DNA of 64,000 nucleotides from Eubacteriales bacterium. GTDB lineage: Bacteria; Bacillota; Clostridia; Oscillospirales; CAG-382. The number at the start of each line of letters is the position of its first letter. The stretch's first letter is position 1. The position numbers and the translations under genes were made by a program. Location: positions 467-64,466 of the forward strand of contig JAZNZY010000001.1 of NCBI GenBank assembly GCA_045595165.1, written 5' to 3'. This document shows, in pieces, positions 2,137-62,850 of the stretch. Under the pieces are notes generated by a model that was not told the DNA's origin, made no database searches, and was given only the letters and a program-made list of their open reading frames with translations.

Positions 2137-2198
2137 AATGAGAAATGCGGAATGCGGAATGAGAAATTTCGGTAGTTTTTTGCGTGACGCAAAAAACC
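2137..2198. repeat. H element (heptamer-armed hairpin), one arm
   Basis: AATGAGA/AATGCGG heptamers, ATTTCGGTAG, then hairpin TTTTTTGCG...CGCAAAAAA. Confidence 0.8.
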
Positions 2199-2245
2199 GT
2201 GTAATTGTTTTTGAAATGTGCCGTCTGTAGAACTGAAAGTTTGAA

Positions 2246-2505
2246 GGGCGCGGAGCATTTGGATGCAGAAAACATCTTTCGCGAGTGGAGAGCTGTAGTA
2301 ACCTACTGCCTCCCGAGCGAAAGTGTTTACAAAAACGCAAACAAAATAAAATTTTGGAGACGATTTTCGTCGGAAAAATTTTTACCTATTAATGTGTTAT
2401 TAAAGCGGCGGGGGCAAGCCACCCGCCCTACAAATGGAAAATAACTAAACAGAAATATTTATATATTTTTTGCGTTTTTGGGTCTGCGCCGAATGAACGC
2501 GCTCC
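2246..2505 (+). repeat. L element copy 1
   Basis: GGGCGCGGAGCATTTGGATGCAG...CTGCGCCGAATGAACGCGCTCC; internal GCTGTAG hairpin, AAAAACGCAAA/TTTGCGTTTTT helix, REP-like hairpin ending CCCTAC. Confidence 0.9.
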
Positions 2506-2511
2506 TCATAA

Positions 2512-2537
2512 AAAAACGGCGATTTCTCGCCGTTTTT
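2512..2537 (-). terminator. Intrinsic terminator
   Basis: AAAAACGGCGA-TTTC-TCGCCGTTTTT directly after the stop at 2538. Confidence 0.75.
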
Positions 2538-3398
2538 CTACTTTATATCTTCTATAACCTTTTCAGGCTTTTCATCCAAAACTTCGGGATTGGACAAAAT
2601 GGTGCGGAGGTATTTGAGCGCGGAGGCGAAATAGTGTCCGTCGCAGACGCGCTCGTCGGTAACCACGCAGTAATCCACGTACTTTCTGTCAACGGGAGAG
2701 CCGTTTTTATCCAGCTCTACCGCGCTTCTCTTTGCGCCGAAGGATATAAACAGAGGCACGTTACCGAAATTATATATATGGTGGTAAATGGGAGGAATTC
2801 CCAAAGAGCCCATAGATGTAATTATCATAGATCCGTGGAAGGGGGAAAGCTGAGAAAGCGAGCGGGGCAGCATACGGTGGTAGTCCATCTTCTTAAGCAC
2901 CCACACGGCGAATTTAAGAACAAATCTGGGAAGAGATCCGAGTATTTTTGCAACATCATCAAAGCTGCTCACCTCGTTGCGGGCGGTGTCTATCTCCTTG
3001 TTTACGATACGGTAAACGTCCTCTGCGGTGGCATCCGGCGGGAATTCCATTTTTATGACCGTATCAGGCGCATCGAGGCGCATTTCTTTTTTTATGGTCA
3101 TTGCCACCTCGATATTATTGCGGGCGTACACGCGCTGTCCCCGTACAAAGCGGTTTATTCCGGGGCGCTGGGATACGGTGCGCACGTATGCGGCAATAAG
3201 CAGATGCATTATACCGAATCCCTTTAAGCCTTCTTTTCTCTTTTTAAAAATATAATCGTCTGCTGCGGCGGTTTCGAAGCTGTCCCGTATCTGGTTGCAG
3301 GCGTCGTTGCGCTCTGCCATAATAACACATTCTATGTTCGTCATAGGGGAAATGGTCTTTAATCTTCTGCCTTCTTGCCAGGAGTGCTTTATTTCCAT
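2538..3398 (-). CDS. Stand-alone 2-oxoacid dehydrogenase E2-like acyltransferase catalytic domain protein
   Basis: GSMIITSMGSLG and DERVCDG resemble the E2 catalytic domain (TxSNxG, DHRxxDG); no lipoyl domain; GAGG SD upstream. Confidence 0.75.
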   Translation of the reverse strand: MEIKHSWQEGRRLKTISPMTNIECVIMAERNDACNQIRDSFETAAADDYIFKKRKEGLKGFGIMHLLIAAYVRTVSQRPGINRFVRGQRVYARNNIEVAMTIKKEMRLDAPDTVIKMEFPPDATAEDVYRIVNKEIDTARNEVSSFDDVAKILGSLPRFVLKFAVWVLKKMDYHRMLPRSLSQLSPFHGSMIITSMGSLGIPPIYHHIYNFGNVPLFISFGAKRSAVELDKNGSPVDRKYVDYCVVTDERVCDGHYFASALKYLRTILSNPEVLDEKPEKVIEDIK

Positions 3399-3419
3399 AG
3401 ATATACCTCACTCGTTTTT

Positions 3420-3540
3420 AATGAGAAACGAGGAATGCGGCGCGATGCAAAGCATCGCTAAATGAGGAATTTCGGAAGATTTTTGTTCTGCGAACAAAAA
3501 TCAACCGTAATTCATCATTTCTCATTCATCATTCGTCATT
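3420..3540. repeat. H element with two core hairpins
   Basis: Heptamer arm, GCGATGC-AAA-GCATCGC, GATTTTTGTTC-TGC-GAACAAAAATC, inverted heptamer arm. Confidence 0.9.
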
Positions 3541-15874: not shown

Positions 15875-16801
15875 ATGGAAAAAATTTACCATTCGGCAGA
15901 TGCGCTGATCGGGCGCACACCGATACTTGAACTGAATAATATAAAAAAAGAATACGGGCTTGAGTGCCGTATTCTTGCAAAGCTTGAATCCTTTAACCCC
16001 GCAGGAAGCGCCAAGGACAGAGTGGCAAAATATATTCTGGACGAGGGAGAAAAGCAAGGTATAATCAATAAAAACACGGTTATTATCGAGCCTACCTCGG
16101 GCAACACGGGTATTGGTCTTGCCGCACTTTGCGCGGTGAGGGGGTATAAATGTGTTATCGTTATGCCCGAAAATATGTCGGAAGAGCGGAAAATGCTTAT
16201 ATCCGCATACGGCGCATCCCTTGTGTTGACACCCAAAAGCGAGGGGATGGACGGCGCCATAAAAAAAGCAAACGAGCTTTTGCGGGAGATCAAAAACAGT
16301 ATAATTGCCGGGCAGTTTACAAACCCCGCAAACCCCAAAGCCCATTACGAAACCACGGGCAGAGAAATATATGAAGATACCGACGGAAACGTGGATATAT
16401 TTGTCTGCGGTGTGGGCACGGGCGGTACGATAACCGGCACGGGCAAGTTTTTAAAAGAGAAAAAGGGCAATATAAAAATAGTGGCTGTTGAGCCAAGCAG
16501 ATCCCCCGTCCTCTCGGGCGGAGAAAAGGGAAGCCACGGCTTGCAGGGGATCGGCGCAGGGTTTGTCCCCGCGGTGCTGGATACCTCCGTTTACGATACG
16601 GTGCAGACCGTAACCGAGGAGGAAGCCTTTGAATGCGCACGAATGCTTGCAAAAACAGAAGGCATCTTAGCGGGAATTTCCTCGGGAGCAGCCCTCCACG
16701 CCGCGATATGCGAAGCAAAAAAGGAAGAAAATATGGGAAAAACCATAGTCGTCCTCCTTCCCGACACGGGAGAAAGATACCTCACAGCAGGACTGTTTTA
16801 A
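15875..16801 (+). CDS. cysK: Cysteine synthase A
   Basis: NPAGSAKDR (PLP Lys), [23 protein letters not shown]. Confidence 0.95.
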
Positions 16802-16886
16802 CGATGAACTATGAACTATGAACGATGAACTATGAACTATGAACTATGAACTATGGAAGTTTTTGGTCAGCAGACCAAAAACTACC
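16801..16886. repeat. H element (ACTATGA/ACGATGA arm), one arm
   Basis: About 8 tandem heptamers starting at the cysK stop, then GTTTTTGGTC-AGCA-GACCAAAAAC-TACC. Confidence 0.85.
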
Positions 16887-16923
16887 TATTAAGATCTTCA
16901 CAGCAGCAAGATAGAAGAAGGTT

Positions 16924-17172
16924 TTAAGACCGGGGATTTGGATGCAGAATGAATTTTTACGAGCGATAGCTGTAGTATTCTACAGCGAGCGAAGTAAAAA
17001 TTTATAGAAACGCGAATAAAAAGGAATTCCGTAGGCGATTTTCGTCTACGGAATTTTTACCTTATTTTGTAATTAAAGCGGCGGGGGCAAGCCACCCGCC
17101 CTACATTGGGGGATTTGCTGAACGGAACTATATATTATTCGCGTTTCGGTCTGCGCCGAATCCACGTCTTAA
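16924..17172 (+). repeat. L element copy 2
   Basis: TTAAGAC..GGATTTGGATGCAG...CTGCGCCGAATCC..GTCTTAA; same internal helices as copy 1. Confidence 0.9.
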
Positions 17173-19448
17173 AACTGGTTCTTGCGCCAGCGGAGGACAA
17201 ATACCGCAGCCCCGCCCACAACCGCCAGAGCGATTATAACCAGCGCGATTATGAGTCCCACGTTAACGGAGGAGGGAGCCTCGAACACTACGGTGAAGGT
17301 GTGATCCTTATCCATGGTTACGGTGTAAACGCCGTCCTCGGCGATATCGATCTCCTCGCCGTCAAGAGTGATCTTTCCTACAACGTATCCCTCGTTGGGA
17401 GTTACGGTGATGGTCTTTGTTTCGCCCAAAGCGACCTTGATGGTGCCGGAGGGGTCTACGGTACCGCATTCGGTGTTATAGGTTACGGTGAGAGTTGCCT
17501 TGTCCTCGGAAACCTCAACGAATACAAGGTCCTTCTGGTTGGAATAATTAACGGTTGCCCAGCCCTTTTCGTCCGCCGTAAGGGTATCGCCTATGGAATT
17601 GAGAGCGCCGGAAAGGAATTCAGCGGGAGAAAGGTCTGCGCCGGAGAATTCGTTGCCCAAGTATATCTCAAGCACGGTGCCTGCGGGGAGTGCGGGAGAA
17701 GTGCAATATACGGTTACGAAGGCGGTGGAAGGATATTCGGTGGAAACCGCATCCTGAATAGCAACGAAATTGGGGCTTCCGTTACGCATAAAATCAAAGG
17801 AAACCGTATCTCCCTCGGGGTTGAACGCACCGCCGCCGGGGATAACAAGGGAAAATTCGCTGTCGTTAATAAGAATCTTCTTTTCGGGATAATTGGAAGC
17901 GGCGCGCTGGAAAATCTCGGTAGAAACGTTGGATTTTTCGGTAACGTCGATAACGATGGTTTCTGCGGTCCAATCAATATCCTCAACGGTGATAGGCGCA
18001 TCGTTTACGGTAGCCTTCTTGAAGGTTGCGCTTATAACCATATTGGCAGATACGTTCTTAATGGTGTATTTACCGCCGGTGAGGGTTACGTCCTCGCCGT
18101 CAACGGTTACGGAATATATTTCGTATCCTTCGTTGGCGGTGATGGTGAAGGTAATATCTCCGCCCTCTTCGATCTCGTTTGCGCCTGCGGGAGTGATAGT
18201 GCCGCCGCCGGAAACGAACGCGGTTACGGTATAGAATACCTCTTCGTTTTCCTCGGTGGAACGGAAGGTTGCGGAAACGGTTGCCGCAGTATCGGTACAT
18301 TCTATGGTATATTCGTTATCCTCGTTAAGCTTTACGGTCTTGCCGCTTACCTTAACGGTGTTGAGCTCGTAATTAACGTGGGGCTCGAAAACGAGAGTGA
18401 TGCTTTCACCAACGGGAACGTATATGTACTTTTTGCTCTCGATCTCGTACAGCTCGTCCTTTACGGTGATAGAGCCGCCGTTGCCGACAGAAAGGGTGAT
18501 CTTGCAGTAATCAACCTTTTCCTTGAAGGTTACGGAAACGGTAATATCTCCCTCGGGAGTGAAGGTGTACTGGTTGTCTTCGATCTCTACGGCTTCTTCG
18601 TTTACAAGCACTTCGTCAACCTCATAGCCTTCATCGGGAACGAAGGTGAGGGTGGAATTTATGCCCTGAGGAACAACGGTTTCGCCGGAAACGGAAACGC
18701 CGTTAAGCAAAACGGAGCCGTTCTCGCCAACGGTAACGGTTGCGCCGTAGGTTTCCAATGCCTCAACAACTACGAGATAACCGGTGTTCTCAACCAGCTT
18801 ATCCTCGTGAGGATTGTCGATATCCATATATCTGGTGCCGGTGAAATATCTGGTCTGCTTGATAGCATAACCGGGCTTTGCGAAAAATTCGATAGTGAAA
18901 TCGGTATTTTCCTCAAGACGTGCATTTCCGTTATAGGATTCGCCGTTAACCTTGAAGTACGCGCCGTCAACGGGAGCGCCGTCGGTATCCACGCACTCAA
19001 CGGTGATGGTGTAGGTGGTAACCTGTCTGAACGTAATTGCAACTTCGTGGTTTGCGGTTACGGTGAAGGTATATGCGCCGTCCTTTGCTTCAACAGCGGT
19101 GCCGTCCACGGTAACGGTATCTACCAGATATCCGTCATTGGAAGTAACGGTAAGAACGGCGGTATCGCCGGTAACGTAATAATATTCGTTCTTGGAGGGA
19201 CGGCTTCCCTCGGTGCTTTCAAGAGTATAATCTCCTCCCGTGCCGCAGGAAACGGTAACGGTGAGATCCTCTTTGACCGCGGGCTCGCTTACCTCGGGGA
19301 TGCTCTCCTCGGGGATGCTCTCCTCGGTTTTGGAAGTATCCTCGATCACTTCGCTTACGTCGCTGGTTTCAGCAAACGCGGCGAAGGGCACGAGCATAAG
19401 AGCTATGATTGCCGCCAGTAAAAAGGCGGTAAGTTTACGTGAAAACAT
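17169..19448 (-). CDS. Cell-surface protein with multiple InlB B-repeat-like domains and C-terminal TM anchor
   Basis: Signal peptide; about six repeats of the type (G/T)xxGx(I/V)...F.PxEGY.(V/I)..V.V(D/N)G; hydrophobic tail plus RWRKNQF. Confidence 0.8.
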   Translation of the reverse strand: MFSRKLTAFLLAAIIALMLVPFAAFAETSDVSEVIEDTSKTEESIPEESIPEVSEPAVKEDLTVTVSCGTGGDYTLESTEGSRPSKNEYYYVTGDTAVLTVTSNDGYLVDTVTVDGTAVEAKDGAYTFTVTANHEVAITFRQVTTYTITVECVDTDGAPVDGAYFKVNGESYNGNARLEENTDFTIEFFAKPGYAIKQTRYFTGTRYMDIDNPHEDKLVENTGYLVVVEALETYGATVTVGENGSVLLNGVSVSGETVVPQGINSTLTFVPDEGYEVDEVLVNEEAVEIEDNQYTFTPEGDITVSVTFKEKVDYCKITLSVGNGGSITVKDELYEIESKKYIYVPVGESITLVFEPHVNYELNTVKVSGKTVKLNEDNEYTIECTDTAATVSATFRSTEENEEVFYTVTAFVSGGGTITPAGANEIEEGGDITFTITANEGYEIYSVTVDGEDVTLTGGKYTIKNVSANMVISATFKKATVNDAPITVEDIDWTAETIVIDVTEKSNVSTEIFQRAASNYPEKKILINDSEFSLVIPGGGAFNPEGDTVSFDFMRNGSPNFVAIQDAVSTEYPSTAFVTVYCTSPALPAGTVLEIYLGNEFSGADLSPAEFLSGALNSIGDTLTADEKGWATVNYSNQKDLVFVEVSEDKATLTVTYNTECGTVDPSGTIKVALGETKTITVTPNEGYVVGKITLDGEEIDIAEDGVYTVTMDKDHTFTVVFEAPSSVNVGLIIALVIIALAVVGGAAVFVLRWRKNQF

Positions 19449-19623
19449 AAATTTTCTCTCCTTCAGACAAGTGGTTTTGTATCAACGCTTGACTTTAACG
19501 TTTTGTTTTGTTATACTTGATTTCAAAGTAGTACCTTGTATTATATAATATAAGTATGAACATTTCAAGTACTAAATTCTAAATTGTAATAAACATCTCT
19601 GCAAAGGAGTTAAAAAATAGGCT

Positions 19624-21321: not shown

Positions 21322-21329
21322 GACTCTTA

Positions 21330-21456
21330 AAATGAGAAATGATGAATGATGAATGAGAAATGATGGTTGCTTTTTGCACTGTTGTGCAAAAAGCTTCCGT
21401 AATTCCTCATTTAGCTCTTGCTTGCAAGAGCGTCGCATTCCTCATTCCTCATTCAT
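21330..21456. repeat. H element with two cores
   Basis: GCTTTTTGCAC-TGTT-GTGCAAAAAGC and GCTCTTGC-TT-GCAAGAGC between inverted heptamer arms. Confidence 0.9.
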
Positions 21457-21495
21457 ATATCTCGTTTCATATTTTTTCAGAAAGGATATATCATT

Positions 21496-22287: not shown

Positions 22288-22295
22288 CTATAATT

Positions 22296-22325
22296 AAAAG
22301 AGCAGACGGTGTCTGCTCTTTTTTT
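22296..22325. terminator. Bidirectional terminator
   Basis: AAAAGAGCAGAC-GGT-GTCTGCTCTTTT plus T run. Confidence 0.75.
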
Positions 22326-22452
22326 AATGAGGAATGAGAAATGAGAAATGAGAAATGATGGAAACCTTTTTTCGCGTTTTGCGCGAAAAAAGCTACCGAA
22401 ATTCCTCATTTAGCGATGCTTTGCATCGCGTCGCATTCCTCATTCATCATTT
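22326..22452. repeat. H element with two cores
   Basis: CTTTTTTCGCG-TTTTG-CGCGAAAAAAG and GCGATGC-TTT-GCATCGC; supplies the stop of the 5'-nucleotidase gene. Confidence 0.9.
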
Positions 22453-26440: not shown

Positions 26441-26564
26441 AATGAGGAACGAGAAACGAGGAACGAGGAATTACGGAAGCTTTTTGCACGTTCGTGCAAA
26501 AAGCAACCATCATTCATCATTTAGCACTCGCTTTGCGAGTGCGTCGCATTCATCATTCCTCATT
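26441..26564. repeat. H element with two cores
   Basis: GCTTTTTGCACG-TT-CGTGCAAAAAGC and GCACTCGC-TTT-GCGAGTGC; supplies the U32 stop codon. Confidence 0.9.
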
Positions 26565-30247: not shown

Positions 30248-31864
30248 ATGTCTAAAATCAAAACACCCGTAGTTACTATAGTTATGGACGGCGTAGGCCT
30301 TTGTCCCAGAACCGAGGGCAACGCTGTTGCCGCCGCAAGCACACCTACATTGGATATGCTTATGGCGAATTACCCCACCTTTTCTCTTAAGGCTCACGGA
30401 ACGGCGGTAGGTCTTCCCTCCGATGACGATATGGGCAACAGCGAGGTTGGCCACAACGCACTGGGCGCAGGTCAGGTATTTGCTCAGGGCGCAAAGCTGG
30501 TTTCCTCCGCTATTGAGAGCGAAAAGCTGTTTAACAGCGAAAGCTGGAAAAAGGTTGTTGCCAACGTAGGCGACACCGGTTCTGTACATTTTATCGGCTT
30601 GTTTTCCGACGGTAACGTGCATTCCCACATCGACCACCTGAAGGCTATGATAGTTAGAGCCAAGGCGGACGGCGTTAAGAAGGTTCGTATACACATACTG
30701 CTTGACGGCCGCGACGTTGGCGAAACGTCCGCGCTTGAATACGTTGATCCCTTTGAAGCTTGGCTTAAAGACCTTTGCGGCGAAGGCTTCGATGCACGCA
30801 TTGCATCCGGCGGCGGAAGAATGGTTATTACCATGGACAGATACGAAGCAAACTGGTCTATGGTTGAAAAGGGCTGGCACACCCACGTGCTGGGCGAAGG
30901 AAGATATTTTGCATCCGCCCACGAGGCTGTTGTTACCTACCGCGAGGAAACCGGCAAGATCGACCAGGATCTTCCTCCCTTCGTTATTGCCGAGGAAAAT
31001 AAGCCTGTGGGAACTATCGAGGACGGGGACAGCGTAGTATTCTTTAACTTCCGCGGCGACAGAGCTATTGAAATTTCCAAGGCATTTGACGATAAGGATT
31101 TTGATAAATTCGACCGTGTGCGCGTGCCCAACGTAGTTTACGCAGGTATGCTGGAGTATGACGGCGACGCTCACGTTCCCTCGATGTATCTGGTTTCTCC
31201 TCCCGAAATTTCCAACACCATGGGTGAATACCTTGCTTCTCTGGGCGTTAACCAGTACGCGCTGAGCGAAACCCAGAAATACGGCCACGTTACCTATTTC
31301 TGGAACGGAAACAGAAGCGGAAAGTTTAACGAAGAGCTGGAAACCTACGTTGAGGTTCCCTCCGATGTGGTTCCCTTTGAGCAGCGCCCCTGGATGAAGT
31401 GCGCAGAGATCACCGATCTGCTGATCGAAGCTATCGAGAGCGGAAAATACGGTTATCTCCGTGTAAACTTCGCCGACGGCGATATGGTTGGTCACACCGG
31501 CTCCTTTGCCGCTACCAAGATATCTATGGAAGCCCTGGACCTTTGCCTTGCACGTATTCTCAAGGCAGTTGACAAGGCGGGCGCGGTGGCTGTTATTACC
31601 GCAGACCACGGCAACGCCGACGAAATGTACGAATACAACAAGAAAAAGGGCGCAGTTTCTCTTAACGAGGACGGCACTCCCAAGGCAAAGACAAGCCATA
31701 CTCTTAACCCCGTTCCCTGCATTATCTACGATAACACCGGCAGAAACGACTATGAATGTGTAGAAGGTCAGTACGGCCTTGCAAACGTAGCCGCCACGGT
31801 TGTTACGTTGCTGGGCTTTGAGCCTAAAGATATGTGGGAAAGCTCGATGATAAAGATAAAATAA
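30248..31864 (+). CDS. gpmI: 2,3-bisphosphoglycerate-independent phosphoglycerate mutase
   Basis: MDGVG, MGNSEVGH, FSDGNVHSH, NFRGDRA, ETQKYGHVT, DMVGHTG, TADHGNA. Confidence 0.97.
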   Translation: MSKIKTPVVTIVMDGVGLCPRTEGNAVAAASTPTLDMLMANYPTFSLKAHGTAVGLPSDDDMGNSEVGHNALGAGQVFAQGAKLVSSAIESEKLFNSESWKKVVANVGDTGSVHFIGLFSDGNVHSHIDHLKAMIVRAKADGVKKVRIHILLDGRDVGETSALEYVDPFEAWLKDLCGEGFDARIASGGGRMVITMDRYEANWSMVEKGWHTHVLGEGRYFASAHEAVVTYREETGKIDQDLPPFVIAEENKPVGTIEDGDSVVFFNFRGDRAIEISKAFDDKDFDKFDRVRVPNVVYAGMLEYDGDAHVPSMYLVSPPEISNTMGEYLASLGVNQYALSETQKYGHVTYFWNGNRSGKFNEELETYVEVPSDVVPFEQRPWMKCAEITDLLIEAIESGKYGYLRVNFADGDMVGHTGSFAATKISMEALDLCLARILKAVDKAGAVAVITADHGNADEMYEYNKKKGAVSLNEDGTPKAKTSHTLNPVPCIIYDNTGRNDYECVEGQYGLANVAATVVTLLGFEPKDMWESSMIKIK

Positions 31865-32010
31865 CGATGAACGATAAACGATGAACGATGAACGAACCAC
31901 CCCGCAAAACCGCAGGTTTTGTAGGGACCCCGGAATGGAAACCTTTTTTCGCGTCTTTACGCGAAAAAAGCTACCGAAGTTCATAGTTCATAGTTCCCAG
32001 TTCATCGTTT
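31863..32010. repeat. H element with nested C module (31898-31933)
   Basis: ACGATGA arm, CACCCCGCAAAACC-GCA-GGTTTTGTAGGGACCCCGG, CTTTTTTCGCGT..ACGCGAAAAAAG, TCATAGT arm. Confidence 0.9.
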
Positions 32011-37326: not shown

Positions 37327-37428
37327 AACTATGAACGATAAACGATGAACGATGAACTAATGGTTGATTTTTGTTCTGCGAACAAAAATCTTCCGAAGTT
37401 CCTAGTTCATAGTTCATAGTTCCTCGTT
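37325..37428. repeat. H element
   Basis: ACGATGA arm, GATTTTTGTTC-TGC-GAACAAAAATC, TCATAGT arm. Confidence 0.9.
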
Positions 37429-40180: not shown

Positions 40181-40193
40181 ATTAAATAAAAAT

Positions 40194-40251
40194 GTTTTTG
40201 CTCCGCAAAAACTACCATAGTTCATAGTTCATAGTTCACAGTTCATAGTTC
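40194..40251. repeat. H element, one arm
   Basis: GTTTTTGC-TCC-GCAAAAAC-TACC followed by TCATAGT heptamers. Confidence 0.8.
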
Positions 40252-41103: not shown

Positions 41104-41267
41104 AACGAGGAACTGGGAACTAGAAACGAGAAACTATGGTTGATTTTTGTTCACAGAACAAAAATCTTCCAAAATTCCTCATTTAGCATCGCAAAGCGAT
41201 GCGTCGCATTCCCGGGGTTCCCCGAAAACGCTATGCGTTTTTGGGGTGGGTTCCTCATTCCTCATTT
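41104..41267. repeat. H element with two cores and nested C module (41211-41250)
   Basis: GATTTTTGTTC-ACA-GAACAAAAATC, GCATCGC-AAA-GCGATGC, C module inside the right arm. Confidence 0.9.
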
Positions 41268-42611: not shown

Positions 42612-42777
42612 AATGAGAAATGAGGAATGCGACGCGATGCAAAGCATCGCTAAATGAGGAATTTCGGTAGCTTTTTTGCGCCGAAGCGCAAAAAAGGTTT
42701 CCATCCCGGGGTTCCCCGAAAACGCTATGCGTTTTTGGGGTGGGTCATTTCTCATTCATCATTCCTCATTCCTCATT
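42612..42777. repeat. H element with two cores and nested C module (42705-42744)
   Basis: GCGATGC-AAA-GCATCGC, CTTTTTTGCGC-CGAA-GCGCAAAAAAG, C module identical to 41211. Confidence 0.9.
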
Positions 42778-44271: not shown

Positions 44272-44372
44272 AACTATGAACGAGGAACTATGAACTATGA
44301 ACTATGGTTGATTTTTGCCCAAAAGGCAAAAATCTTCCGAAGTTTCTCGTTTCTCGTTCATCGTTCATCGTT
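44272..44372. repeat. H element
   Basis: ACTATGA arm, GATTTTTGCC-CAAAA-GGCAAAAATC, TCTCGTT/TCATCGT arm. Confidence 0.88.
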
Positions 44373-44393: not shown

Positions 44394-45011
44394 ATGCTTT
44401 CACCACGATTACAAGCAGCAGCCGATCTTATAACCTACGCCGATTCCATCATTGACATCGGTACGGATCACGGATATTTACCCATATATTTGCTTAAAAG
44501 CGGCAAGACGAAGACGGCGTGCGCAGCGGATATACGGATCGGCCCTCTTGACAACGCCAGAGAAAATATATTATCCTATGGCGTGGAGTGCGAATGCATA
44601 CTTTCCGACGGGTTTAAAAATATATGTAAAAAATACTCCCTCGCCTGCATTTGCGGTATGGGAGGAGAAACCATTGCAAATATTATTACCGAAGGTAAAA
44701 ATATCACCCCCGATACGCTGATATTACAGCCAATGACGGGGGCAGACAAGTTGCGCAAATTTTTGTTTGAAAACGGGTATACCGTAACCGACGAAGCCTT
44801 CGTTACCGAGGGTGAAAAGGTATACTGCATAATAAAAGCCCATAAAACGGGGGAAAACACCCCCTATACATATTCCGACTTGTTTTTGGGACATATCCGC
44901 CCGAAAACAGAGGGATATATAAAATGGAAAGAAAAAGTCCGCCTGCAAGCAGAAAAACGGCTTCTGGGCGGAAGGAACAAAGCTGATGAACAGCTTTGCA
45001 ATGAGGAATGA
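44394..45011 (+). CDS. trmK: tRNA (adenine22-N1)-methyltransferase
   Basis: LSPRLQ, DIGTDHGYLP, LSDG, ICGMGGETI, LILQP. Confidence 0.9.
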   Translation: MLSPRLQAAADLITYADSIIDIGTDHGYLPIYLLKSGKTKTACAADIRIGPLDNARENILSYGVECECILSDGFKNICKKYSLACICGMGGETIANIITEGKNITPDTLILQPMTGADKLRKFLFENGYTVTDEAFVTEGEKVYCIIKAHKTGENTPYTYSDLFLGHIRPKTEGYIKWKEKVRLQAEKRLLGGRNKADEQLCNEE

Positions 45012-45156
45012 GGAATGAGGAATGAGGAACGAGTAACCCACCCCAAAAACGCATAGCGTTTTCGGGGAACCCCGGGAACGAGGAATTTCGGAAGATTTTT
45101 GTTCGCAGAACAAAAATCAACCATCATTTCTCATTTATCATTTATCATTCCTCATT
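45000..45156. repeat. H element with nested C module (45036-45076)
   Basis: (AATGAGG)4 arm encodes the trmK end NEE*; GATTTTTGTTC-GCA-GAACAAAAATC. Confidence 0.9.
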
Positions 45157-45328: not shown

Positions 45329-45438
45329 AAACACACAAGACACCACCTTTCGCCCTTATTGTGCGCAAAAGAAAGAGTTTTAATGCAAAAAAACATATAA
45401 AAAATCCCCGTTTTACGCAAATTTCTTTAAAAAAACTG

Positions 45439-49010: not shown

Positions 49011-49672
49011 TCTATCTCGTTGATCTGATGTTTATCGGAAACTATATCTTTATCCCCTTTTACGGGCAAATGATATATTTCCTCTTGTGTATGGTCTGCG
49101 GTTATCTGCTGGGAAGCATTAACACGGCGATAATCGTGAGCAAGAAAAAGTACGGAAAAGATATACGTAACTTCGGCTCGGGCAACGCGGGTCTTACCAA
49201 TATGAAGCGTGTCTACGGCTGGGGCGCCGCAGGATATACCCTCCTTGGGGATATGGGCAAGCAGGTTGCCGCTGTGGGTATCGGTATGTTTTTGGGACAC
49301 GTGCCCGGCGCATATATTGCAGGTCTGTTTTGCATTATAGGTCATATCCTCCCCTGCTGGTACGGCTTTAAGGGCGGAAAGGGCGTGCTTACCGCCGCCA
49401 CACTTATTCTGCTGCTTGACCCTATGGTGTTTGCCATCCTGCTCATAATCTGGTTTGCTGTACTGCTTCTTACCAGATACGTTTCCCTGGCTTCTATCGT
49501 AGCCGCATTCGCATATCCCGCCGCTATGTACGCAAGATATCAGGGAAAAGACCCGTTCTCCCTCATTTTCGCCCTTGTTATCGGTCTTTTTGTAATATAT
49601 ATGCACAGAAGCAATATTAAGAGATTATTCAATAACCAGGAAAGCAAGTTTACGTTTAAAAATAAAAAGTAG
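49007..49672 (+). CDS. plsY: Glycerol-3-phosphate acyltransferase PlsY
   Basis: GYLLGSI, DIRNFGSGNAGLTN, FKGGKGV, HRSNIKRL; start position uncertain. Confidence 0.93.
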   Translation: MIYLVDLMFIGNYIFIPFYGQMIYFLLCMVCGYLLGSINTAIIVSKKKYGKDIRNFGSGNAGLTNMKRVYGWGAAGYTLLGDMGKQVAAVGIGMFLGHVPGAYIAGLFCIIGHILPCWYGFKGGKGVLTAATLILLLDPMVFAILLIIWFAVLLLTRYVSLASIVAAFAYPAAMYARYQGKDPFSLIFALVIGLFVIYMHRSNIKRLFNNQESKFTFKNKK

Positions 49673-49675
49673 CGG

Positions 49676-49945
49676 GGAGCGCGTTCATTCGGCGCAGAAC
49701 CAAAAACGCAAAAGCAAGAGTAAGATATTTCGATAACCGTAGGGTACGACGTCCTCGTCGTACCGCCTCTCACAGTTTAGAGGTAGAAATTCTTACAGAA
49801 TTTCTTTAAATTTAATTTATTTGCGTTTTTGTAGAAATTTTCGCGTCGCTCGCTGTAGTTTACTACAGCTACCGCTAGCGAAAATTCCTTCTGCATCCAA
49901 ATGCTCCGCGCCCTTCAGACTTTCTGCGCTACAGACGTTACATAT
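49676..49945 (-). repeat. L element copy 6 (inverted) with left extension
   Basis: GGAGCGCGTTCATTCGGCGCAG...CTGCATCCAAATGCTCCGCGCCC; extension matches 2217-2245. Confidence 0.92.
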
Positions 49946-50039
49946 CAAAAATTTAACTTAAAATCCGCGTACAGCGGATTTTTACCGAACCTTTTCACTC
50001 TTCACTTTTCACTCTTAACTTTTTATAGGGGTATATACT

Positions 50040-51278
50040 ATGCCACTTGCCGATTCCATCCGCCCCACGACCCTTGCCGAAATGGCAGGTCAGGAGCATT
50101 TATTACAAAACGGCGCCCCGTTGCGCCGCATATTGGAAAGCGGACATTTGCCCTCCATGATATTTTACGGTCCCCCCGGCACGGGAAAGACCACCCTTGC
50201 AAATATCGCGGCGAAATTGACCGAAAAACAGATTTTCCGCATAAACGCCACCACTGCATCTCTTTCCGACGTAAAAGAGGTTTTACAGGAAACGGACAGT
50301 CTGTTTTCCGCAGGGGGAATACTGCTGTATATCGATGAAATTCAGTATTTCAACAAAAAGCAGCAGCAGGCGCTCCTCGAATACGTGGAGGACGGCAGAG
50401 TTACCCTTATTTGCTCCACCACCGAAAACCCCTATTTCGCCCTGTACGGCGCGTTACTTTCCAGAAGCACGGTTTTTGAATTCAAGCCCGTGTCCCCAAA
50501 GGAATGTCTTAAAACCTTAAAGCGGGGTCTTGAAGCGCTTAACGAGCAAACGAACGGTAACAAAAAGTGCGATGACGCCTTGCTTTTGGATATTGCATCC
50601 GGTTGCGGCGGGGACGTGAGAAAATCTCTTACCGCGCTTGAAAACCTGTATTACGCCAGCGTGGGCGACGAGATCGAAAAGGATTTTGCAAACAGCCTCA
50701 TTCAGAGAAGCGGTATGCGGTTTGACGTTAGCGGCGACGTGCATTACGATATCCTTTCCGCATTCCAGAAATCTATTCGCGGCAGCGACGAAAACGCCGC
50801 TGTCCATTACCTTGCCCGTCTTCTTGCGGGAGGAGATCTCCTTTCCCCCTGCAGACGTCTGCTGGTTATCGCCAGCGAGGATATAGGACTTGCCTACCCT
50901 CAGGCGGTGAGTATGGTAAAAGCCTGCGTGGATTCAGCCCTTCACCTCGGTCTGCCCGAAGCGGGACTCCCTCTGGCTGAGGCTACCATTCTTCTTGCCA
51001 CCGCGCCAAAGAGTAATTCCGCATCTGCCGCATATTGGGCGGCGATGGAGGACGTGGAAAACGGACTTGCCGTTTCTGTTCCCTCTCATTTGCAGGATAC
51101 CCATTATTCCGGCGCGAAAAAATTGGGCAGAGGCGGATATAAATATCCCCACGCATATCCCAATAACTTCGTGGAACAGCAGTACCTGCCCGACGAACTG
51201 AAGGACAAGGTGTACTACGTACCGGGAACCAATAAGACCGAGCAAGCCATGAAGGAATATTGGTTAAAAGTAAAATGA
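50040..51278 (+). CDS. rarA: Replication-associated recombination protein A (RarA/MgsA)
   Basis: PLADSIRP, GPPGTGKTT, IDEIQYFNK, AFQKSIRGSD, ASEDIGLA. Confidence 0.95.
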   Translation: MPLADSIRPTTLAEMAGQEHLLQNGAPLRRILESGHLPSMIFYGPPGTGKTTLANIAAKLTEKQIFRINATTASLSDVKEVLQETDSLFSAGGILLYIDEIQYFNKKQQQALLEYVEDGRVTLICSTTENPYFALYGALLSRSTVFEFKPVSPKECLKTLKRGLEALNEQTNGNKKCDDALLLDIASGCGGDVRKSLTALENLYYASVGDEIEKDFANSLIQRSGMRFDVSGDVHYDILSAFQKSIRGSDENAAVHYLARLLAGGDLLSPCRRLLVIASEDIGLAYPQAVSMVKACVDSALHLGLPEAGLPLAEATILLATAPKSNSASAAYWAAMEDVENGLAVSVPSHLQDTHYSGAKKLGRGGYKYPHAYPNNFVEQQYLPDELKDKVYYVPGTNKTEQAMKEYWLKVK

Positions 51279-51394
51279 GGAATGCGGAATGCGACGCGAT
51301 GCAAAGCATCGCTAAATGAGGAATTTCGGAAGATTTTTGTTCACAGAACAAAAATCAACCATCATTTCTCATTCATCATTCATCATTCCTCATT
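51274..51394. repeat. H element with two cores
   Basis: Near-identical to 3420-3540; supplies the rarA stop. Confidence 0.9.
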
Positions 51395-54796: not shown

Positions 54797-54928
54797 GCAT
54801 CCTGCGGATGCGTGATATGTTGCGTACCGCAACGTGATATGAACACTCCGTGTTCGTGATATGCCACTGCGGGGCGTGATATGTTGCTACGCAACGTTTG
54901 GGTAGTTTTTTGCGAGAACGCAAAAAAC
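54797..54928 (+). repeat. G array copy 1: five triloop hairpins joined by GTGATAT, then an H-type core
   Basis: GCATCC-TGC-GGATGC, GTTGCG-TAC-CGCAAC, GAACAC-TCC-GTGTTC, GCCAC-TGC-GGGGC, GTTGC-TAC-GCAAC. Confidence 0.9.
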
Positions 54929-57309: not shown

Positions 57310-57443
57310 TTTTTTGCATTTTTGCAAAAAACATACCGAAACGTTGCGAAGCAACATATCACGTGCGTGAAACGCACATATCACGAACACGGAGTGTTCA
57401 TATCACGTTGCGGTACGCAACATATCACGCATCCGAAGGATGC
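57310..57443 (-). repeat. G array copy 2 (inverted relative to copy 1)
   Basis: ATATCAC x4 between GTTGC-GAA-GCAAC, GTGCGT-GAA-ACGCAC, GAACAC-GGA-GTGTTC, GTTGCG-GTA-CGCAAC, GCATCC-GAA-GGATGC. Confidence 0.9.
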
Positions 57444-58437: not shown

Positions 58438-58583
58438 AATGATGAATGAGAAATGATGAATGAGGAATTTCGGTACGTTTTTTGCATTACGCAAAAAACT
58501 TTTTTTGATTATTTAATTATTTAAAATTCGCGTGATGCGAATTTTTACCATAATTTCTCATTTCTCATTCCGAATTCCTCATT
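58438..58583. repeat. H element in the rpmH-dnaA spacer
   Basis: Heptamer arm, TTTTTTGC..GCAAAAAA, AAAATTCGC-GTGAT-GCGAATTTT, inverted arm. Confidence 0.8.
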
Positions 58584-60040: not shown

Positions 60041-60059
60041 AATATCTGTTGACTTTAAT

Positions 60060-60250
60060 TAACAAATATTTTCGGTTTTACACACCTTTTTCAAAAAAAC
60101 CGACATAATTTTACACAGGTTTTCAACATTCTTTCAACAGGAAATTTCACTTTTAAAAAATATAAAAAACGTTTTAAAAATAAATATTTTTTATACTTTT
60201 CCACAAACCTGACACGGTCAATAATCAATAATACCTACAACAAAACCTTT
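60060..60250. other. oriC (dnaA-dnaN intergenic part)
   Basis: Boxes TTTTACACA (60076, 60109), TTTTCAACA (60120), TTTTCCACA (60197); AT-rich 60140-60200; NAN-periodic tract AAT AAT CAA TAA TAC CTA CAA CAA resembling DnaA-trios. Confidence 0.8.
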
Positions 60251-60303
60251 TAACACTTGATTCTTGCTACACTCTGTACACAGACAAGGAGATTTTTGAA
60301 AAA

Positions 60304-61428
60304 ATGGCTATTAAGTTTATAACCGACAGAAAGACACTTCTTTCTTTAATACAGCCGGCTATGACGGCTACTTCAAATAAAAGCACACTCCCCGCTTTGG
60401 AAGGATTACTTTTAAGCCTTGAAAAAGACGGTGTGCTTACCGTTTGCGGATATGACCTTGAAAAAGGCGTAAAGACCTCCTCCCCCGTTTATCCCAAGGA
60501 GGTAGGAAGCGTAATACTCAACGCCCAAAAGATATACGCAATTATTAAAAATATGCCCGAATGTGAAATAGAGATAAATGCGGACGAGAAAAACGCCGTT
60601 ACCATTAAAGGCGGCGCTTCCGAATTTACTATTCACGGTCTGGCGGCAGAGGCGTTCCCGAACCTGCCAGAGCTTATCGGCGACAGATCCTTTACCATCA
60701 CTCAAGGGCTGTTAAAGGAAATGATAAATTCCACCATCTTCGCCGTGGCGCAGATAGACGCCCGCCCCATACTTACGGGAGAGCTTTTCCAGATAGAGGA
60801 AAACAAGCTTACCATAGTTGCTCTTGACGGCGCCCGTCTTGCTCTGCGTGAAGAAAAGAACGCTGTTTTTGATAATAAAGAAACCTTCCGTTTTGTTGTG
60901 CCCGGAAAATCCCTTTCCGACCTGTGCAAGCTGATAACGGATAACGATGAAATGATGAAGGTTGAATTCACACGCAAGCATATCGTGTTCCGTATAGGCG
61001 ATATTATCTTTTTCTCCCGTCTGCTTGAGGGCGAATATCTTGATTACACCCGCGCGCTGCCTCAGCAAAGCAAGATTTTCGTTGAGGTAGAAAGAAGCGA
61101 GTTTATAGAAAGCGTGGAAAGAGCGTCCCTGCTGGTTGACGAAAGACTTAAAACTCCCCTCCGCTTCCGTTTTGAGGATACCTTGCTTCACGTTTACTGT
61201 TCTACCCAGTATGGCAAGGTAAACGATCAGGTAAGAATTAAAAAAGAGGGCGACGATCTGGAGATAAGCTTTAATAACCGTTATCTTTTAGATGCGCTCC
61301 GCGCCTGCAAGGACGAAACCATACTTGCATCTCTTACGGGACCGCTGACATCTATGATGCTCACTCCCGTAGGACACAGAGATTCTTCGTATATATATCT
61401 GGTACTCCCCTGCAGAGTTAAAAGCTGA
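60304..61428 (+). CDS. dnaN: DNA polymerase III beta clamp
   Basis: STLPALEG, ELFQI...VALDGARL, RLLEGEY, FNNRYLLDAL. Confidence 0.96.
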   Translation: MAIKFITDRKTLLSLIQPAMTATSNKSTLPALEGLLLSLEKDGVLTVCGYDLEKGVKTSSPVYPKEVGSVILNAQKIYAIIKNMPECEIEINADEKNAVTIKGGASEFTIHGLAAEAFPNLPELIGDRSFTITQGLLKEMINSTIFAVAQIDARPILTGELFQIEENKLTIVALDGARLALREEKNAVFDNKETFRFVVPGKSLSDLCKLITDNDEMMKVEFTRKHIVFRIGDIIFFSRLLEGEYLDYTRALPQQSKIFVEVERSEFIESVERASLLVDERLKTPLRFRFEDTLLHVYCSTQYGKVNDQVRIKKEGDDLEISFNNRYLLDALRACKDETILASLTGPLTSMMLTPVGHRDSSYIYLVLPCRVKS

Positions 61429-62510
61429 TGCAGATAAACGACCTTTATTTAAAGGATTGGCGTAACGGAGAGGAGAATAAGATATCCTTTTCGCCGGATA
61501 CCACCCTTATCTGCGGCGAGAATGCCGCAGGAAAGACGAATTTGCTGGAGGGTATATGTTTCTTTGCCGCGGGAAAAAGCTTCCGCGGATGCAAGGATAA
61601 GGAGCTTATACGCTTCGGGTGCGATTCCGCCTCCGCAGATATTACCTATACGTCAAGAGGCGTAACCAACAAAATGGGTGTGCGTCTTAAAAAGAACGCC
61701 AAAAAGACATTCCTTAAAAATAACGTGCCCATATCCAAAATGAGCGAATTTTTGGGCGCGTTCAGATGCGTTATATTCACCCCCGATCATCTTGATCTGG
61801 TAAAGGGCGCTCCCGAGGGAAGAAGACGGTTTATAGATATGGCGATATGCCAATCCTTCCCCCGTCACGTAGCCGCATTAAACGAATATAACCGTCTGCT
61901 TATACAAAAAAACGCTCATTTAAAAGGAAACGCTGTGTTCGACGAGCTGCTTGACGTTTACGACGAGCGTATGGCGGCTCTTGCCGCGAATATTACCGTA
62001 AACAGAAAAAAATATATAAAAGCTTTGGAAGAAAGCGGAAAAAGGTTTCTTTACGATATGTCGGTGGAGAGGGAGGAAATGTCCCTTACCTATATCACCC
62101 AAAGCGAGGGTGAAACGGCAAACGAGATAAAAGAAAGCTATACTGCGCTTTTTAAGGAAAAGCGGAGTACGGAAATTGAAAAGAGAATGACTCTGTGCGG
62201 CACTCAAAAGGACGATTTTTTAATACACATAAACCGCAAAAGCGCAAAAAGCTACGGAAGCCAGGGACAGCAGCGAAGCGTGGTCCTTGCCCTTAAGCTG
62301 GCGGAGGGTGAAATTTCAAGATCCCTTACGGGTGAATACCCCGTATTTTTGCTGGACGACGTGCTGAGCGAATTGGATGACAGCCGCAGAGAGTATATTT
62401 TAAAGCGTATCGAGGGCAGACAGGTGATTATCACCGGCTGTGATGAAAGTCTGATCGACATTCTCCCCCGCGCGCAGGTAATAAAGGTGGAAATGGGCAA
62501 ATGTTTGTAA
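61428..62510 (+). CDS. recF: DNA replication and repair protein RecF
   Basis: GENAAGKTNLLE, RRRFIDM, GSQGQQRS, LLDDVLSELD. Confidence 0.96.
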   Translation: MQINDLYLKDWRNGEENKISFSPDTTLICGENAAGKTNLLEGICFFAAGKSFRGCKDKELIRFGCDSASADITYTSRGVTNKMGVRLKKNAKKTFLKNNVPISKMSEFLGAFRCVIFTPDHLDLVKGAPEGRRRFIDMAICQSFPRHVAALNEYNRLLIQKNAHLKGNAVFDELLDVYDERMAALAANITVNRKKYIKALEESGKRFLYDMSVEREEMSLTYITQSEGETANEIKESYTALFKEKRSTEIEKRMTLCGTQKDDFLIHINRKSAKSYGSQGQQRSVVLALKLAEGEISRSLTGEYPVFLLDDVLSELDDSRREYILKRIEGRQVIITGCDESLIDILPRAQVIKVEMGKCL

Positions 62511-62749
62511 ACCCCGGAAATGATATAAGTATAAAAAAGAAAGAAATTATCGGTATTTTTAATATGGATACCGCAACCGTTTCCCCCGTTACCAAGGATT
62601 TTTTGAAAAATGCCGAAAAGGAGCTTAAGGTGGTCTACGCAGGTAAGCGTATGCCCGAGAGCTTCGTGGTGTCGGACGATGGAATATCGGAAAGCGTGTA
62701 TATAAGTTCATTTACGGCGGATACGCTGGTGAACAGAACGGAGAAGTAA
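62501..62749 (+). CDS. DUF370/RemB-like protein
   Basis: IIGIFNMDT, YISSFTADTL; usual position between recF and gyrB. Confidence 0.8.
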   Translation: MFVNPGNDISIKKKEIIGIFNMDTATVSPVTKDFLKNAEKELKVVYAGKRMPESFVVSDDGISESVYISSFTADTLVNRTEK

Positions 62750-62850
62750 TGAGAAATGATAAATGATAAATGATGAATGATGGTTGATTTTTGCGTAAAA
62801 CGCAAAAATCTTCCGTAATTTCTCATTCCTCATTCCTCATTCCTCATTCC
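62749..62850. repeat. H element
   Basis: AATGATA arm, GATTTTTGCG-TAAAA-CGCAAAAATC, (TTCCTCA)n arm ending at the gyrB SD. Confidence 0.9.

Follow-up and report, generated by a model that had tools for sequence, protein, structure and literature searches.

The whole stretch of DNA analyzed here (64 kb, hereafter referred to as the window) harbors 17 modular non-coding palindromic repeats, the H elements, in which tandem-heptamer arms enclose conserved hairpin cores. In our judgment (a probability of about 55%), they are gene-less, i.e., MITE-like and internally deleted, derivatives of heptamer-armed cassettes carrying a four-helix-bundle (4HB) protein gene, the S23p-bearing intervening sequences (IVSs) of 23S rRNA representing a special case of the latter. 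This reading links unexplained heptamer repeats of bacteria with the long-standing riddle of the IVSs in ribosomal RNA. New in this respect are the polarity of the arms, the clustering in the oriC block and the fixed sites with hypervariable content, as well as the 4HB gene found within the same arms and cores in sister species and the period-7 arrays at distant 4HB loci.

Anatomy of the H Elements

An earlier note on this DNA had counted 17 copies, and every one of them was found in its place. They are listed below (T and C, arm types; A, B1–B3 and Cc, cores; no strand is assigned to any copy).

2137..2197, one-armed: T-type arm (4 heptamers) and B3 hairpin GTTTTTTGCG/CGCAAAAAAC; L-type repeat adjoining, to ~2320
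3420..3540, two-armed: arm, core A, flipped core B1 (stem GATTTTTGTTC), arm
16800..16883, one-armed: 8 C-type heptamers, beginning inside the stop codon of the upstream gene, and B3-like hairpin (AGTTTTTGGTC), then L-type repeat
21331..21453, two-armed: T5 arm, B1 (GCTTTTTGCAC), core A (GCTCTTGC), T3 arm; located from stop codon to following gene
22326..22451, two-armed: T5 arm, B2 (CTTTTTTCGCG), core A (GCGATGC), T3 arm; immediately after a terminator, its arm giving the TGA stop to the minus-strand gene 22447-23970
26441..26564, two-armed: mixed arm, flipped B1 (GCTTTTTGCAC), T2, core A (GCACTCGC), T3; identical architecture in G008
31863..32009, two-armed: C4 arm, Cc hairpin, B2 (CTTTTTTCGCGT), C-type arm
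37327..37428, two-armed B-only, 102 nt: C4 arm, B1 (GATTTTTGTTC), C4 arm; intercistronic; a T-type/B2 element instead at this site in G008
40194..40250, one-armed: B3 hairpin (GTTTTTGC) and C-type arm; terminates an L-type repeat (~39990-40190)
41104..41266, two-armed, mixed alphabets: C arm, B1 (GATTTTTGTTC), core A (GCATCGC), Cc, T2 arm; occupies a divergent promoter spacer
42612..42777, two-armed: T3 arm, core A, flipped B2 (CTTTTTTGCGC), Cc, T4 arm; site empty in G007
44272..44372, two-armed B-only, 101 nt: from stop codon to RBS of the next gene
45000..45156, two-armed: T/M5 arm, Cc, flipped B1 (GATTTTTGTTC), T5 arm; a C-type/GCAC element instead in the conspecific L042
46269..46394, two-armed, downstream of the rpmF terminator: T4 arm, flipped B2 (CTTTTTCGCGT), T2, core A (GCATCGCG), T3; a 23-nt L-element end (GGGACGCGTTCATTCGGCGCAGA) just before
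51274..51394, two-armed: T3 arm, core A, flipped B1 (GATTTTTGTTC), T5 arm; arm begins in the stop codon region
58438..58583, two-armed, rpmH-dnaA spacer (origin region): T4 arm, B3 hairpin, AT-rich insert with small hairpin, T5 arm
62748..62848, two-armed B-only, 101 nt: T5 arm, B1 (GATTTTTGCGT), T4 arm; 5 nt upstream of the gyrB RBS

The copies at 3420 and 51274, described earlier as near-identical, are indeed near-twins with identical architecture and mostly common sequence. The arms are built of tandem heptamers of the types AATGAKR (T) and AACKAKR (C), in agreement with the two degenerate 7-mer alphabets reported before; a third alphabet, AAGAGTG/AAAAGTG, is present in addition at 49991-50020 of the window. 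Outside the earlier count there also lies a full L-type repeat (49672..50025) ending in a B-like hairpin and a third-alphabet arm (TTTTCAC TCTTCAC ...). The arm pattern was matched 102 times in the genome harboring the window, the reversed-pattern control giving 0 matches (41 genomes), and the family was confined to a single genus of uncultured ruminant-hindgut Clostridia, ~14 MAGs among 185,579 species. Overall, the H elements possess terminal inverted repeats, a size of <300 bp and multiple copies, as is typical of MITEs.

The arms possess polarity: they are AATGATG-rich on the ATGG side and AATGAGG-rich on the CCGAA side, T occupying position 6 in 67% of the T-type units of the left arm vs. 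5% of those of the right arm, and arm composition goes along with core orientation. Left and right arms are not simple complements, so the arm stem of ~35 bp is mismatched about every 7 nt. Folding of both strands is predicted to yield such an interrupted stem capped by hairpins (z = −6.7 to −9.6). The 35-nt arms can be identical at loci with different cores (C1:63252 and C21:122468).

The cores A and B conform to the inventory of the earlier note, to which a third one, Cc (CCCC-N-AAAA...TTTT-N-GGGG), has to be added. As described there, core B combines asymmetric flanks (GG-TTG/AAAC ... C-TT/TA-CC) with perfect stems varying between copies, and core A is flanked by TTAGC...GCGTCGCATT; its stems are perfect palindromes in 7/7 cases in the window and in 11/13 genome-wide. 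Three subtypes of core B were distinguished: B1 (GGTTG..CTTCC), B2 (GGAAAC..CTACC) and the one-armed B3, which constitutes one end of the longer "L" repeat. Hairpin B has a conserved base (stem base T5-7/A5-7, flanks GGTTG/CTTCC) and a variable top, the stem "alleles" being few and each of them found again at several loci. The stems covary, with 98.7% of cells paired and both sides changed in 5/13 pairs, a level reached by 0/500 shuffles; in a core set defined by the flanks only, ~91/98 had perfect stems no shorter than 9 bp.

Turnover of the Elements between Assemblies

Judging by the assembled sequences, the sites of the elements are stable and their content is hypervariable within species; all of the between-genome comparisons are those of metagenome assemblies. 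Conspecific assemblies (95.5–99% identity) display whole-element swaps, core-only swaps, in-place inversion and inserted mini-hairpins. Thus, G000 differed from its conspecifics L042/L185 at 5/5 sites, and a core B cassette was the sole difference between L038 and L040; where the flanking genes were 100% identical (L036 and L044, as well as G002 at these sites), the elements were identical too. The site 44272..44372 featured at least seven architectures in 15 genomes, the element being inverted in place in G008, L038 and L040 vs. G002; such an inversion carries the arm variants over to the opposite side. At 62748..62848, G002, G008 and the conspecific L185 differ in alphabet, core and orientation, and the rpmH-dnaA site is filled in every arm-bearing species with differing content.

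Orthologous sites were also found empty in G002, G007 and G008, which amounts to presence/absence polymorphism. At these filled and empty sites, a target-site duplication is not definable, the spacers being too strongly diverged and the boundaries AA/TT-ambiguous. The suggestion that the unit is mobile or recombinogenic draws support from the filled and empty sites, the in-place inversion and the swaps of cores or arms between conspecifics, no recombinase or transposase having been identified. The opposite possibility entertained in the earlier note, i.e., copies confined to the window with neither a coding partner nor polymorphism, does not hold: copies elsewhere, a partner gene and strain polymorphism were all found.

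The Four-Helix-Bundle Gene

A connection of heptamer repeats with 4HB genes had been suggested earlier, and the sister species bear it out: in G006, G008, G002 and G004, a TIGR02436 gene resides within H-type elements, enclosed by the arms, core B and core A known from the window. The cargo protein matches TIGR02436 at 1.6e-29 and PDB 2RLD at 1.7e-24. The TIGR02436/PF05635 family is that of the "S23p / 23S-rRNA intervening-sequence protein", related to DGR Avd. Within the genus, the arm-poor genomes (G001, G005, G007) possess 0–1 4HB genes, and the arm-rich ones possess 1–6, mostly 4–6. The genome harboring the window has no 4HB gene between H-type arms, and its two 4HB loci are flanked by GTGATAT/mini-hairpin arrays. 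All of the window copies are devoid of an ORF.

The association extends to distant 4HB homologs: period-7 arrays were located beside the gene (at most 350 nt away) in 62/80 unrelated metagenome loci, with a density of 3.07 per kb near the gene vs. 0.21 per kb far away, and the control periods 6, 8 and 9 gave 0, 2 and 12 near-gene runs, respectively. An A-A-T-(G/T) core was common to 39 distinct heptamer units (5.5 bits vs. 4.1 ± 0.17 in shuffled ones). None of the 80 distant loci was situated in rRNA. To our knowledge, the 4HB protein has no catalytic activity; hence, it cannot alone account for the mobility.

Proposed Origin

A full-length cassette would comprise a 4HB gene (TIGR02436/PF05635) between two inverted tandem-heptamer arrays, the H elements being its gene-less derivatives. 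By analogy with the S23p-bearing IVSs, the transcribed arm stem may serve as an RNase III substrate, in which case cutting of this stem would render insertion in operons harmless; the genome carries an RNase III gene (rnc). The arms, as shared repeats of 35 nt, may be the homologous tracts through which copies undergo gene conversion or inversion, and the replacement of a core with both arms left unchanged would thereby be explained. A protein may recognize the conserved base of hairpin B, and the combination of this base with a variable top fits the recognition by structure proposed earlier. Arm-guided gene conversion can hardly account by itself for alphabet switches that extend as far as the element boundary, and derivation from a 4HB cassette does not predict the origin-proximal confinement of the two-armed copies.

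A broader generalization is tentative, and we consider it rather doubtful as a whole: heptamer arrays together with the 4HB protein might form one unrecognized kind of selfish cassette across bacteria, where the arrays (A-A-T-(G/T) every 7 nt, 39 independent lineages) would be putative cis-sites of a pentameric 4HB protein, the 23S IVSs would be a case that landed in rRNA and the H elements would be MITEs still bound or reshuffled in trans, their activity being coupled to the origin region.

Comparison with Known Systems

The 23S rRNA IVSs with an S23p ORF (Coxiella burnetii, Leptospira) are excised by RNase III; in the Coxiella IVS, strain-variable tandem heptamers precede the S23p ORF, the first repeat being the RNase III cut site (PMC4990558). 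The H elements resemble these IVSs in the long terminal inverted-repeat stem, in the heptamers residing in the stem (and beside the ORF in full-length relatives), in the PF05635/TIGR02436 cargo of the full-length relatives and in the sporadic, apparently selfish distribution. Unlike the IVSs, the window copies are ORF-less and all lie in spacers between protein-coding genes, none of them in 23S rRNA helix 25 or 45; since a 23S rRNA gene is present in none of the 10 genus assemblies, rRNA-located copies fall outside this comparison. The H elements are further distinguished by arms of ~5 units on both sides and by the extra conserved hairpin modules enclosed.

Heptamer repeats are also represented by the cyanobacterial STRR. 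Rehm et al. (2015) described heptamer arrays of GGGAATC units arranged as convergent pairs in Xanthomonas, as well as arrays of the unit GGGGAYT in Nostoc, with conserved hairpin cores or a 4HB gene link not reported there (PMC4692102). Such arrays and the H elements have in common that tandem heptamers stand in intergenic DNA, often in convergent inverted pairs with one array on each strand, and that the gene context is kept in related species while length and sequence vary. In contrast to the H elements, whose units AATGAGG and AACTATG lack GGG runs and hence G-quadruplex-type G-tracts, the Xanthomonas and Nostoc arrays are rich in G, and the interest in them was in their formation of G-quadruplexes (PMC4692102).

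The H elements also resemble the REP/BIME/REPIN as abundant extragenic palindromes at gene ends with modular clustering and concerted within-genome evolution (PMC3333891, PMC3116915), but they differ in the lack of a genomic RAYT, A/T-based stems, heptamer arms and a regional rather than genome-wide distribution. Their size of 100–170 nt, terminal inverted repeats, modular boxes in variable number, proximity to genes and co-transcription are reminiscent of BOX and Correia elements, from which they differ by the absence of a related transposase-encoding parent, the candidate parent encoding only a small non-enzymatic 4HB protein; a target duplication is not clearly discernible in them. The pneumococcal BOX and the Neisseria Correia elements are MITEs with modular structure.

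Genomic Placement and Alternative Explanations

The H elements occupy transcribed spacers, at stop codons or from the stop codon to the next RBS: a stop codon is at most 5 nt away at ~19/57 arm-bearing sites, and ~13/22 convergent spacers of the origin block are occupied. This location at the 3′ ends of genes and in intercistronic DNA, along with very stable predicted folds and compensatory stem changes, favors host-selected RNA elements, i.e., intercistronic mRNA stabilizers, processing sites or terminators kept for regulation and not selfish DNA. We consider this explanation unlikely, since core orientation is random with respect to transcription (7 same-sense vs. 8 opposite in co-directional spacers), the stems lack a following T-tail and the cores are not called terminators, conspecifics differ in content at one and the same site, and G001 has no elements and G007 nearly none, both of them possessing the same operons. 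Intrinsic terminators as such were rejected: the T-run sits within the 5′ half of the stem, and the B1/B2 cores remained uncalled in 36–52 kb. The terminator calls totaled 26 vs. 20.4 ± 5.6 in shuffles.

Of the 31 two-armed copies, 30 are concentrated around oriC (P ~1e-27), where their block spans at least 234 kb, or 11% of the genome, and contains dnaA-dnaN-recF-gyrB, with the contig order inferred from relatives; most of the arms of G002 and G008 are in the same origin-proximal block. Together with the conserved base of hairpin B and the only two parS sites of the genome, which flank one element, this suggests dispersed binding sites for a chromosome-organizing protein, like parS/ParB or ram/RacA. 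Such an architectural role seems improbable given the content and orientation, hypervariable even within species, the occurrence of one-armed copies also on other contigs, the same arm design at the 4HB genes of unrelated bacteria and the lack of a known candidate binding protein.

A RAYT (Y1 transposase) spreading the H elements in the manner of REP/REPINs, or an ordinary insertion sequence of which they are MITEs, would account for short extragenic multicopy palindromes with conserved hairpins and presence/absence polymorphism, but such an origin is very improbable: a GTAG-type 5′ motif is missing, the base of the stem is rich in A/T, and an autonomous transposase-encoding parent with the same ends was not found, the 4HB gene being the only cargo seen between the arms. 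The involvement of a RAYT is largely refuted by the PF01797 profile, which had 0 matches in the 97%-complete genome and was positive in 6 control genomes. Core B had no match in viral contigs.

Finally, passive growth of heptamer microsatellites around pre-existing hairpins by polymerase slippage, without inter-locus copying, is disfavored and the least probable explanation of all: heptamers are the over-represented size among bacterial SSRs (PMC4692102) and some one-armed arrays are long (8–14 units), but the B-only two-armed copies are nearly constant in size (101–107 nt, ~5+5 units), identical 35-nt arm patterns reappear at separate loci, the composition of the arms goes with the orientation of the core, and the arm alphabets and cores are of few discrete kinds common to many loci and species.

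Architecture of the H Elements

All 17 heptamer-armed hairpins which the earlier note had described in the window were borne out as tandem heptamers followed by one to three small hairpins and, usually, by a complementary heptamer run. Two arm alphabets dominate, AATGAKR (T-type) and AACKAKR (C-type), and a third, AAGAGTG/AAAAGTG, occurs at window 49991-50020 and in the relatives. The four-unit arm pattern has 102 matches in the genome harboring the window (G000), and the same pattern reversed has none in 41 genomes. At the gathering threshold, no Rfam family was matched in the entire window. Two-armed copies with core B only are 101-107 nt long and comprise about 5+5 units.

Core B can be oriented by its asymmetric flanks. 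Subtype B1 reads ATGG-TTG-[A/C]TTTTTG-NNN-loop-NNN-CAAAAA[T/G]-C-TTCCGAA(A/G)TT, subtype B2 is flanked by GGAAAC...CTACC, and the one-armed B3 is a terminal part of the longer “L” repeat. The invariant parts of core B are a GG/CC clamp, a 2x2 T.T (or A.A) internal loop and a T5-7/A5-7 lower stem; the variable top 3-4 bp and the loop are fully compensated. In an alignment of sequences picked as hairpins, 98.7% of the cells were paired and 5 of 13 pairs were altered on both sides, with none of 500 shuffles equally high. When the set was defined via the flanks alone, about 91 of 98 members possessed perfect stems of at least 9 bp, vs. 0-3 bp paired in chance flank matches. Core A is always found on the CCGAA side, between heptamers, and the Cc hairpin on either side, with its CCCGGG end toward core B.

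On the ATGG side, AATGATG and AATGATA prevail among the T-type units (T at position 6 in 114 of 171), and those on the CCGAA side are AATGAGG (T at position 6 in 6 of 124). Since the arms are not mirror images, the H element has polarity, and its folded stem is mismatched about every 7 nt; despite these mismatches, each strand greatly surpasses its shuffled versions in folding (z = -6.7 to -9.6). Selection for position-matched arm pairing was ruled out: mirror units are alike at 5.15 of 7 positions vs. 5.32 for non-mirror units (permutation P = 0.999).

Two companion repeats were recorded. The Cc hairpin (CCCC-N-AAAA-stem-TTTT-N-GGGG with a GGGGT/CCCGGG collar) is present at 45 sites genome-wide, over many contigs, unlike the H elements. 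The L repeat is about 330 nt long, with GGGGA(C/G)CGCGTTCATTCGGCGCAGAACCAAAAACGCAAA at one end and the B3 hairpin plus a heptamer arm at the opposite one.

Companion repeats in the window
41210-41252, Cc hairpin
42700-42745, Cc hairpin
45038-45075, Cc hairpin
31898-31935, Cc hairpin
49672-50025, L repeat
about 2198-2320, L repeat
about 16884-17000, L repeat
about 39990-40190, L repeat

Association with Four-Helix-Bundle Genes

The earlier note had proposed looking for four-helix-bundle (4HB) genes with the same arms, and these do exist: four relatives from the same genus (G006, G008, G002 and G004) have a PF05635 gene enclosed by the T or C arms, core B and core A that also make up the H elements, with the Shine-Dalgarno sequence of the gene provided by an arm heptamer. 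This gene encodes a 121-aa protein of TIGR02436 (“four helix bundle protein”, 1.6e-29), whose relatives include PDB 2RLD and 2GSC (Xanthomonas S23p pentamer). The H element looks like such a cassette after loss of its gene and second hairpin. Among the genomes of the genus, those poor in arms (G001, G005, G007) have 0-1 4HB genes, and those rich in arms have 1-6, mostly 4-6.

The association was examined further in 80 metagenome loci encoding relatives 35-54% identical. Period-7 tandem repeats lie at most 350 nt from the gene in 62 of these loci, on both sides in 44, of which 29 are clearly inverted. Such runs amount to 3.07 per kb close to the gene vs. 0.21 per kb far away; control periods of 6, 8 and 9 gave 0, 2 and 12 near-gene runs, respectively. 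After rotation alignment, 39 distinct units follow the consensus A (39/39)-A (27/39)-T (32/39)-G/T (38/39), with an information content of 5.5 bits vs. 4.1 +/- 0.17 in letter-shuffled controls. All 80 loci, which come from rRNA-poor metagenome assemblies, lay outside rRNA, and the assembled MAGs of the genus, checked for 23S intervening sequences, contain no rRNA gene. In the 23S intervening sequence of Coxiella, 2-3 strain-variable GACAGAT heptamers precede the S23p ORF, and the first repeat is the RNase III cut site (PMC4990558), a special case of the association already in the literature. A literature search found no paper on the general heptamer-4HB association or on gene-less derivatives.

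Overall, the best-supported reading, to which we assign a probability of about 0.55, derives the H elements from heptamer-armed 4HB cassettes by loss of the gene. It would bring into one frame several loose ends, i.e., the over-represented bacterial heptamer repeats (STRR, Xanthomonas arrays), the rRNA intervening sequences, whose origin and mobility are a puzzle, and the “four helix bundle/S23p” proteins, very widespread and puzzling in their role. The 121-aa protein, the heptamer unit with its conserved AAT core and the hairpin with a conserved base are concrete test substrates.

The two PF05635 loci of G000 itself are flanked not by H arms but by inverted GTGATAT arrays and mini-hairpins. 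Similar arrays in the relatives have other linkers (CATCATT, AACGATG, AATTCATG).

Mini-hairpin arrays with the constant heptamer linker GTGATAT
Window 54812-54881
Window 57357-57428
G000 contig C19:89787-90477
G000 contig C17:400-600

Placement Relative to Genes

The following figures rest on our own ORF-based gene calls and are approximate. A stop codon, at times provided by the arm itself (e.g., 22447), lies within 5 nt of about 19 of 57 arm-bearing sites. In the origin-proximal block delimited below, elements occupy about 13 of 22 convergent, 24 of 66 co-directional and 5 of 20 divergent spacers. Typically, the H element lies between a stop codon and the next RBS (44272, 62748) or adjoins a true terminator (22326, 26441); a terminator function of its own was ruled out, as the cores have no T-tail and are not called as terminators.

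The foremost alternative reading, a host regulatory RNA element, has in its favor the compensated stems and this position between stop codon and RBS. Against it stands the orientation of core B, which is random relative to the direction of transcription (7 same-sense, 8 opposite), with no replication or transcription polarity seen, including no switch at the origin.

Several neighboring features deserve mention. In the empty G007 allele orthologous to the G000 C14:35425 site, the native RBS region is GAAATGAGGTTTTTGTATG; hence, the Shine-Dalgarno context of the downstream gene there consists of one AATGAGG unit, and other species have a full arm at this place. An exact-protein look-up of the 82-aa ORF before gyrB returned no record. 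A 57-61-aa ORF between trmK and yceD (window 45161-45346, minus strand), called there in 10 of 10 related metagenome contigs, has no Pfam match. The sole gene-sized interval between inverted arms in G000 (C39:5579-6502) harbors a 236-aa ORF with a promoter-like site of its own and no Pfam match, flanked by a C-type arm plus hairpin and a T-type arm plus hairpin.

Taxonomic Range and Origin-Proximal Clustering

Of the 10 genomes of the genus, 8 have arms (tens to >100 matches), which are practically missing from 30 further genera within the family and order. In one genome per each of 185,579 species, the exact B1 pattern was found only in about 14 MAGs of uncultured Clostridia, Oscillospiraceae or Eubacteriales, mostly of ruminant hindgut origin, apart from one chance match. 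Phage carriage was ruled out: core B has no match among 2.9 million viral contigs, and 68 viral matches to the arm pattern resemble unrelated repeats.

In G000, 30 of 31 two-armed copies fall in the block C14-C1-C21 (176.9 to 83.8 kb)-C15, which spans at least 234 kb (11.4% of the genome) and includes rnpA-rpmH/dnaA-dnaN-recF-gyrB (binomial P = 1.4e-27, with the contig order inferred via synteny with single contigs of G008, G006 and G007). The remainder of C21 (83 kb) outside the block has one two-armed copy. In G002, 57 arms are found on the homologous 210-kb contig. All genomes compared are MAGs; mis-binning as the source of the clustering was ruled out, given that G000 (2.05 Mb, 39 contigs, window at C1:467-64466) is 97% complete with 0.27% contamination and C1, C14 and C21 are collinear with the single contigs of the three relatives. 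This clustering is what a binding site of the origin domain would predict, a less likely alternative, to be set against the arm design shared with the 4HB cassettes.

A palindromic element (window 58438-58583) is situated in the rpmH-dnaA spacer, the expected place of oriC and the dnaA promoter; this spacer is occupied in every arm-bearing species and in G007, not in G001, with a content of 100 to about 400 nt. The sole two parS-like sites of the whole genome, TGTTTCACGTGAAACA and CGTTTCACGTGAAACA, bracket a single H element at about 30 kb from dnaA, at a site occupied by an element in G002 and G008 as well.

ParS-like pair, outside the window
G000 C21:161064-161079
G000 C21:161227-161242

Turnover and Possible Mechanism

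In orthologous spacers of G002, G006, G007, G008 and G004, the arm-bearing species mostly share the sites but differ in what fills them, namely in alphabets, core alleles, accessory cores and orientation. At site 44272, G008 and G002 carry elements that are exact reverse complements of one another within the same 139-nt spacer, and the rare arm unit AACTGGA has moved to the opposite side. Empty sites were seen in G007, G002 and G008, and the family is missing from G001.

Variation within species was followed in 20 further metagenome contigs around rpmF and rpmH. Between G000 and its conspecific contigs L042/L185 (95.5-97.7% identity), 5 of 5 examined sites differ: a Cc hairpin is inserted between arm units (in L042, within the element at 44272), a T-type/GTTC element is swapped for a C-type/GCAC one, and L elements stand in place of H elements, the two alternating at the same sites between strains. 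The contigs L038 and L040 (97.8% identity) differ solely in the core B cassette (B1 vs. B2), with arms and core A unchanged. Within G000, the copies at C1:63252 and C21:122468 share identical 35-nt and 28-nt arms around different cores. The conspecific differences and identical arms with different cores imply that turnover is modular and fast relative to point substitution. Elements are identical in two contigs with 100% identical flanking genes (L036, L044) and in G002, which matches them in architecture at these sites; this speaks against assembly noise. Natural alleles one module apart in near-identical strains are further test substrates.

Fast within-species cassette turnover along with restriction to the origin-proximal 11% is unusual among bacterial repeats and suggests an active, undescribed mechanism. 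A REPIN or an ordinary MITE, an improbable alternative, would fit the hairpin architecture; a RAYT/Y1 transposase as the mover was not found in G000, and no transposase cargo was found between arms. Pure slippage of the heptamers is the weakest alternative, with the nearly fixed size of the two-armed B-only copies and the recurrence of identical arms at different loci speaking against it. If the H elements are indeed derived from 4HB cassettes, the arm stem may be a putative RNase III processing site, making insertion in operons tolerable (an rnc gene is present in G000), arm-guided gene conversion or inversion among copies could generate the core swaps and flips, and the conserved base of hairpin B might be a putative protein recognition site. 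Alphabet switches that reach the element boundary, and the clustering near the origin, do not follow from this scheme.

Larger rearrangements were observed as well, due either to real recombination or to misassembly at repeats. A 5.5-kb segment of G000 (C1:17365-22855, window 16899-22389) with an arm-bearing element at each end is inverted vs. both G008 and G002. Compared with G000, G006, G007 and G008, the 210-kb contig C11 of G002 is shuffled, most of the breakpoints coinciding with H elements; given the risk of misassembly, it was left out as evidence.
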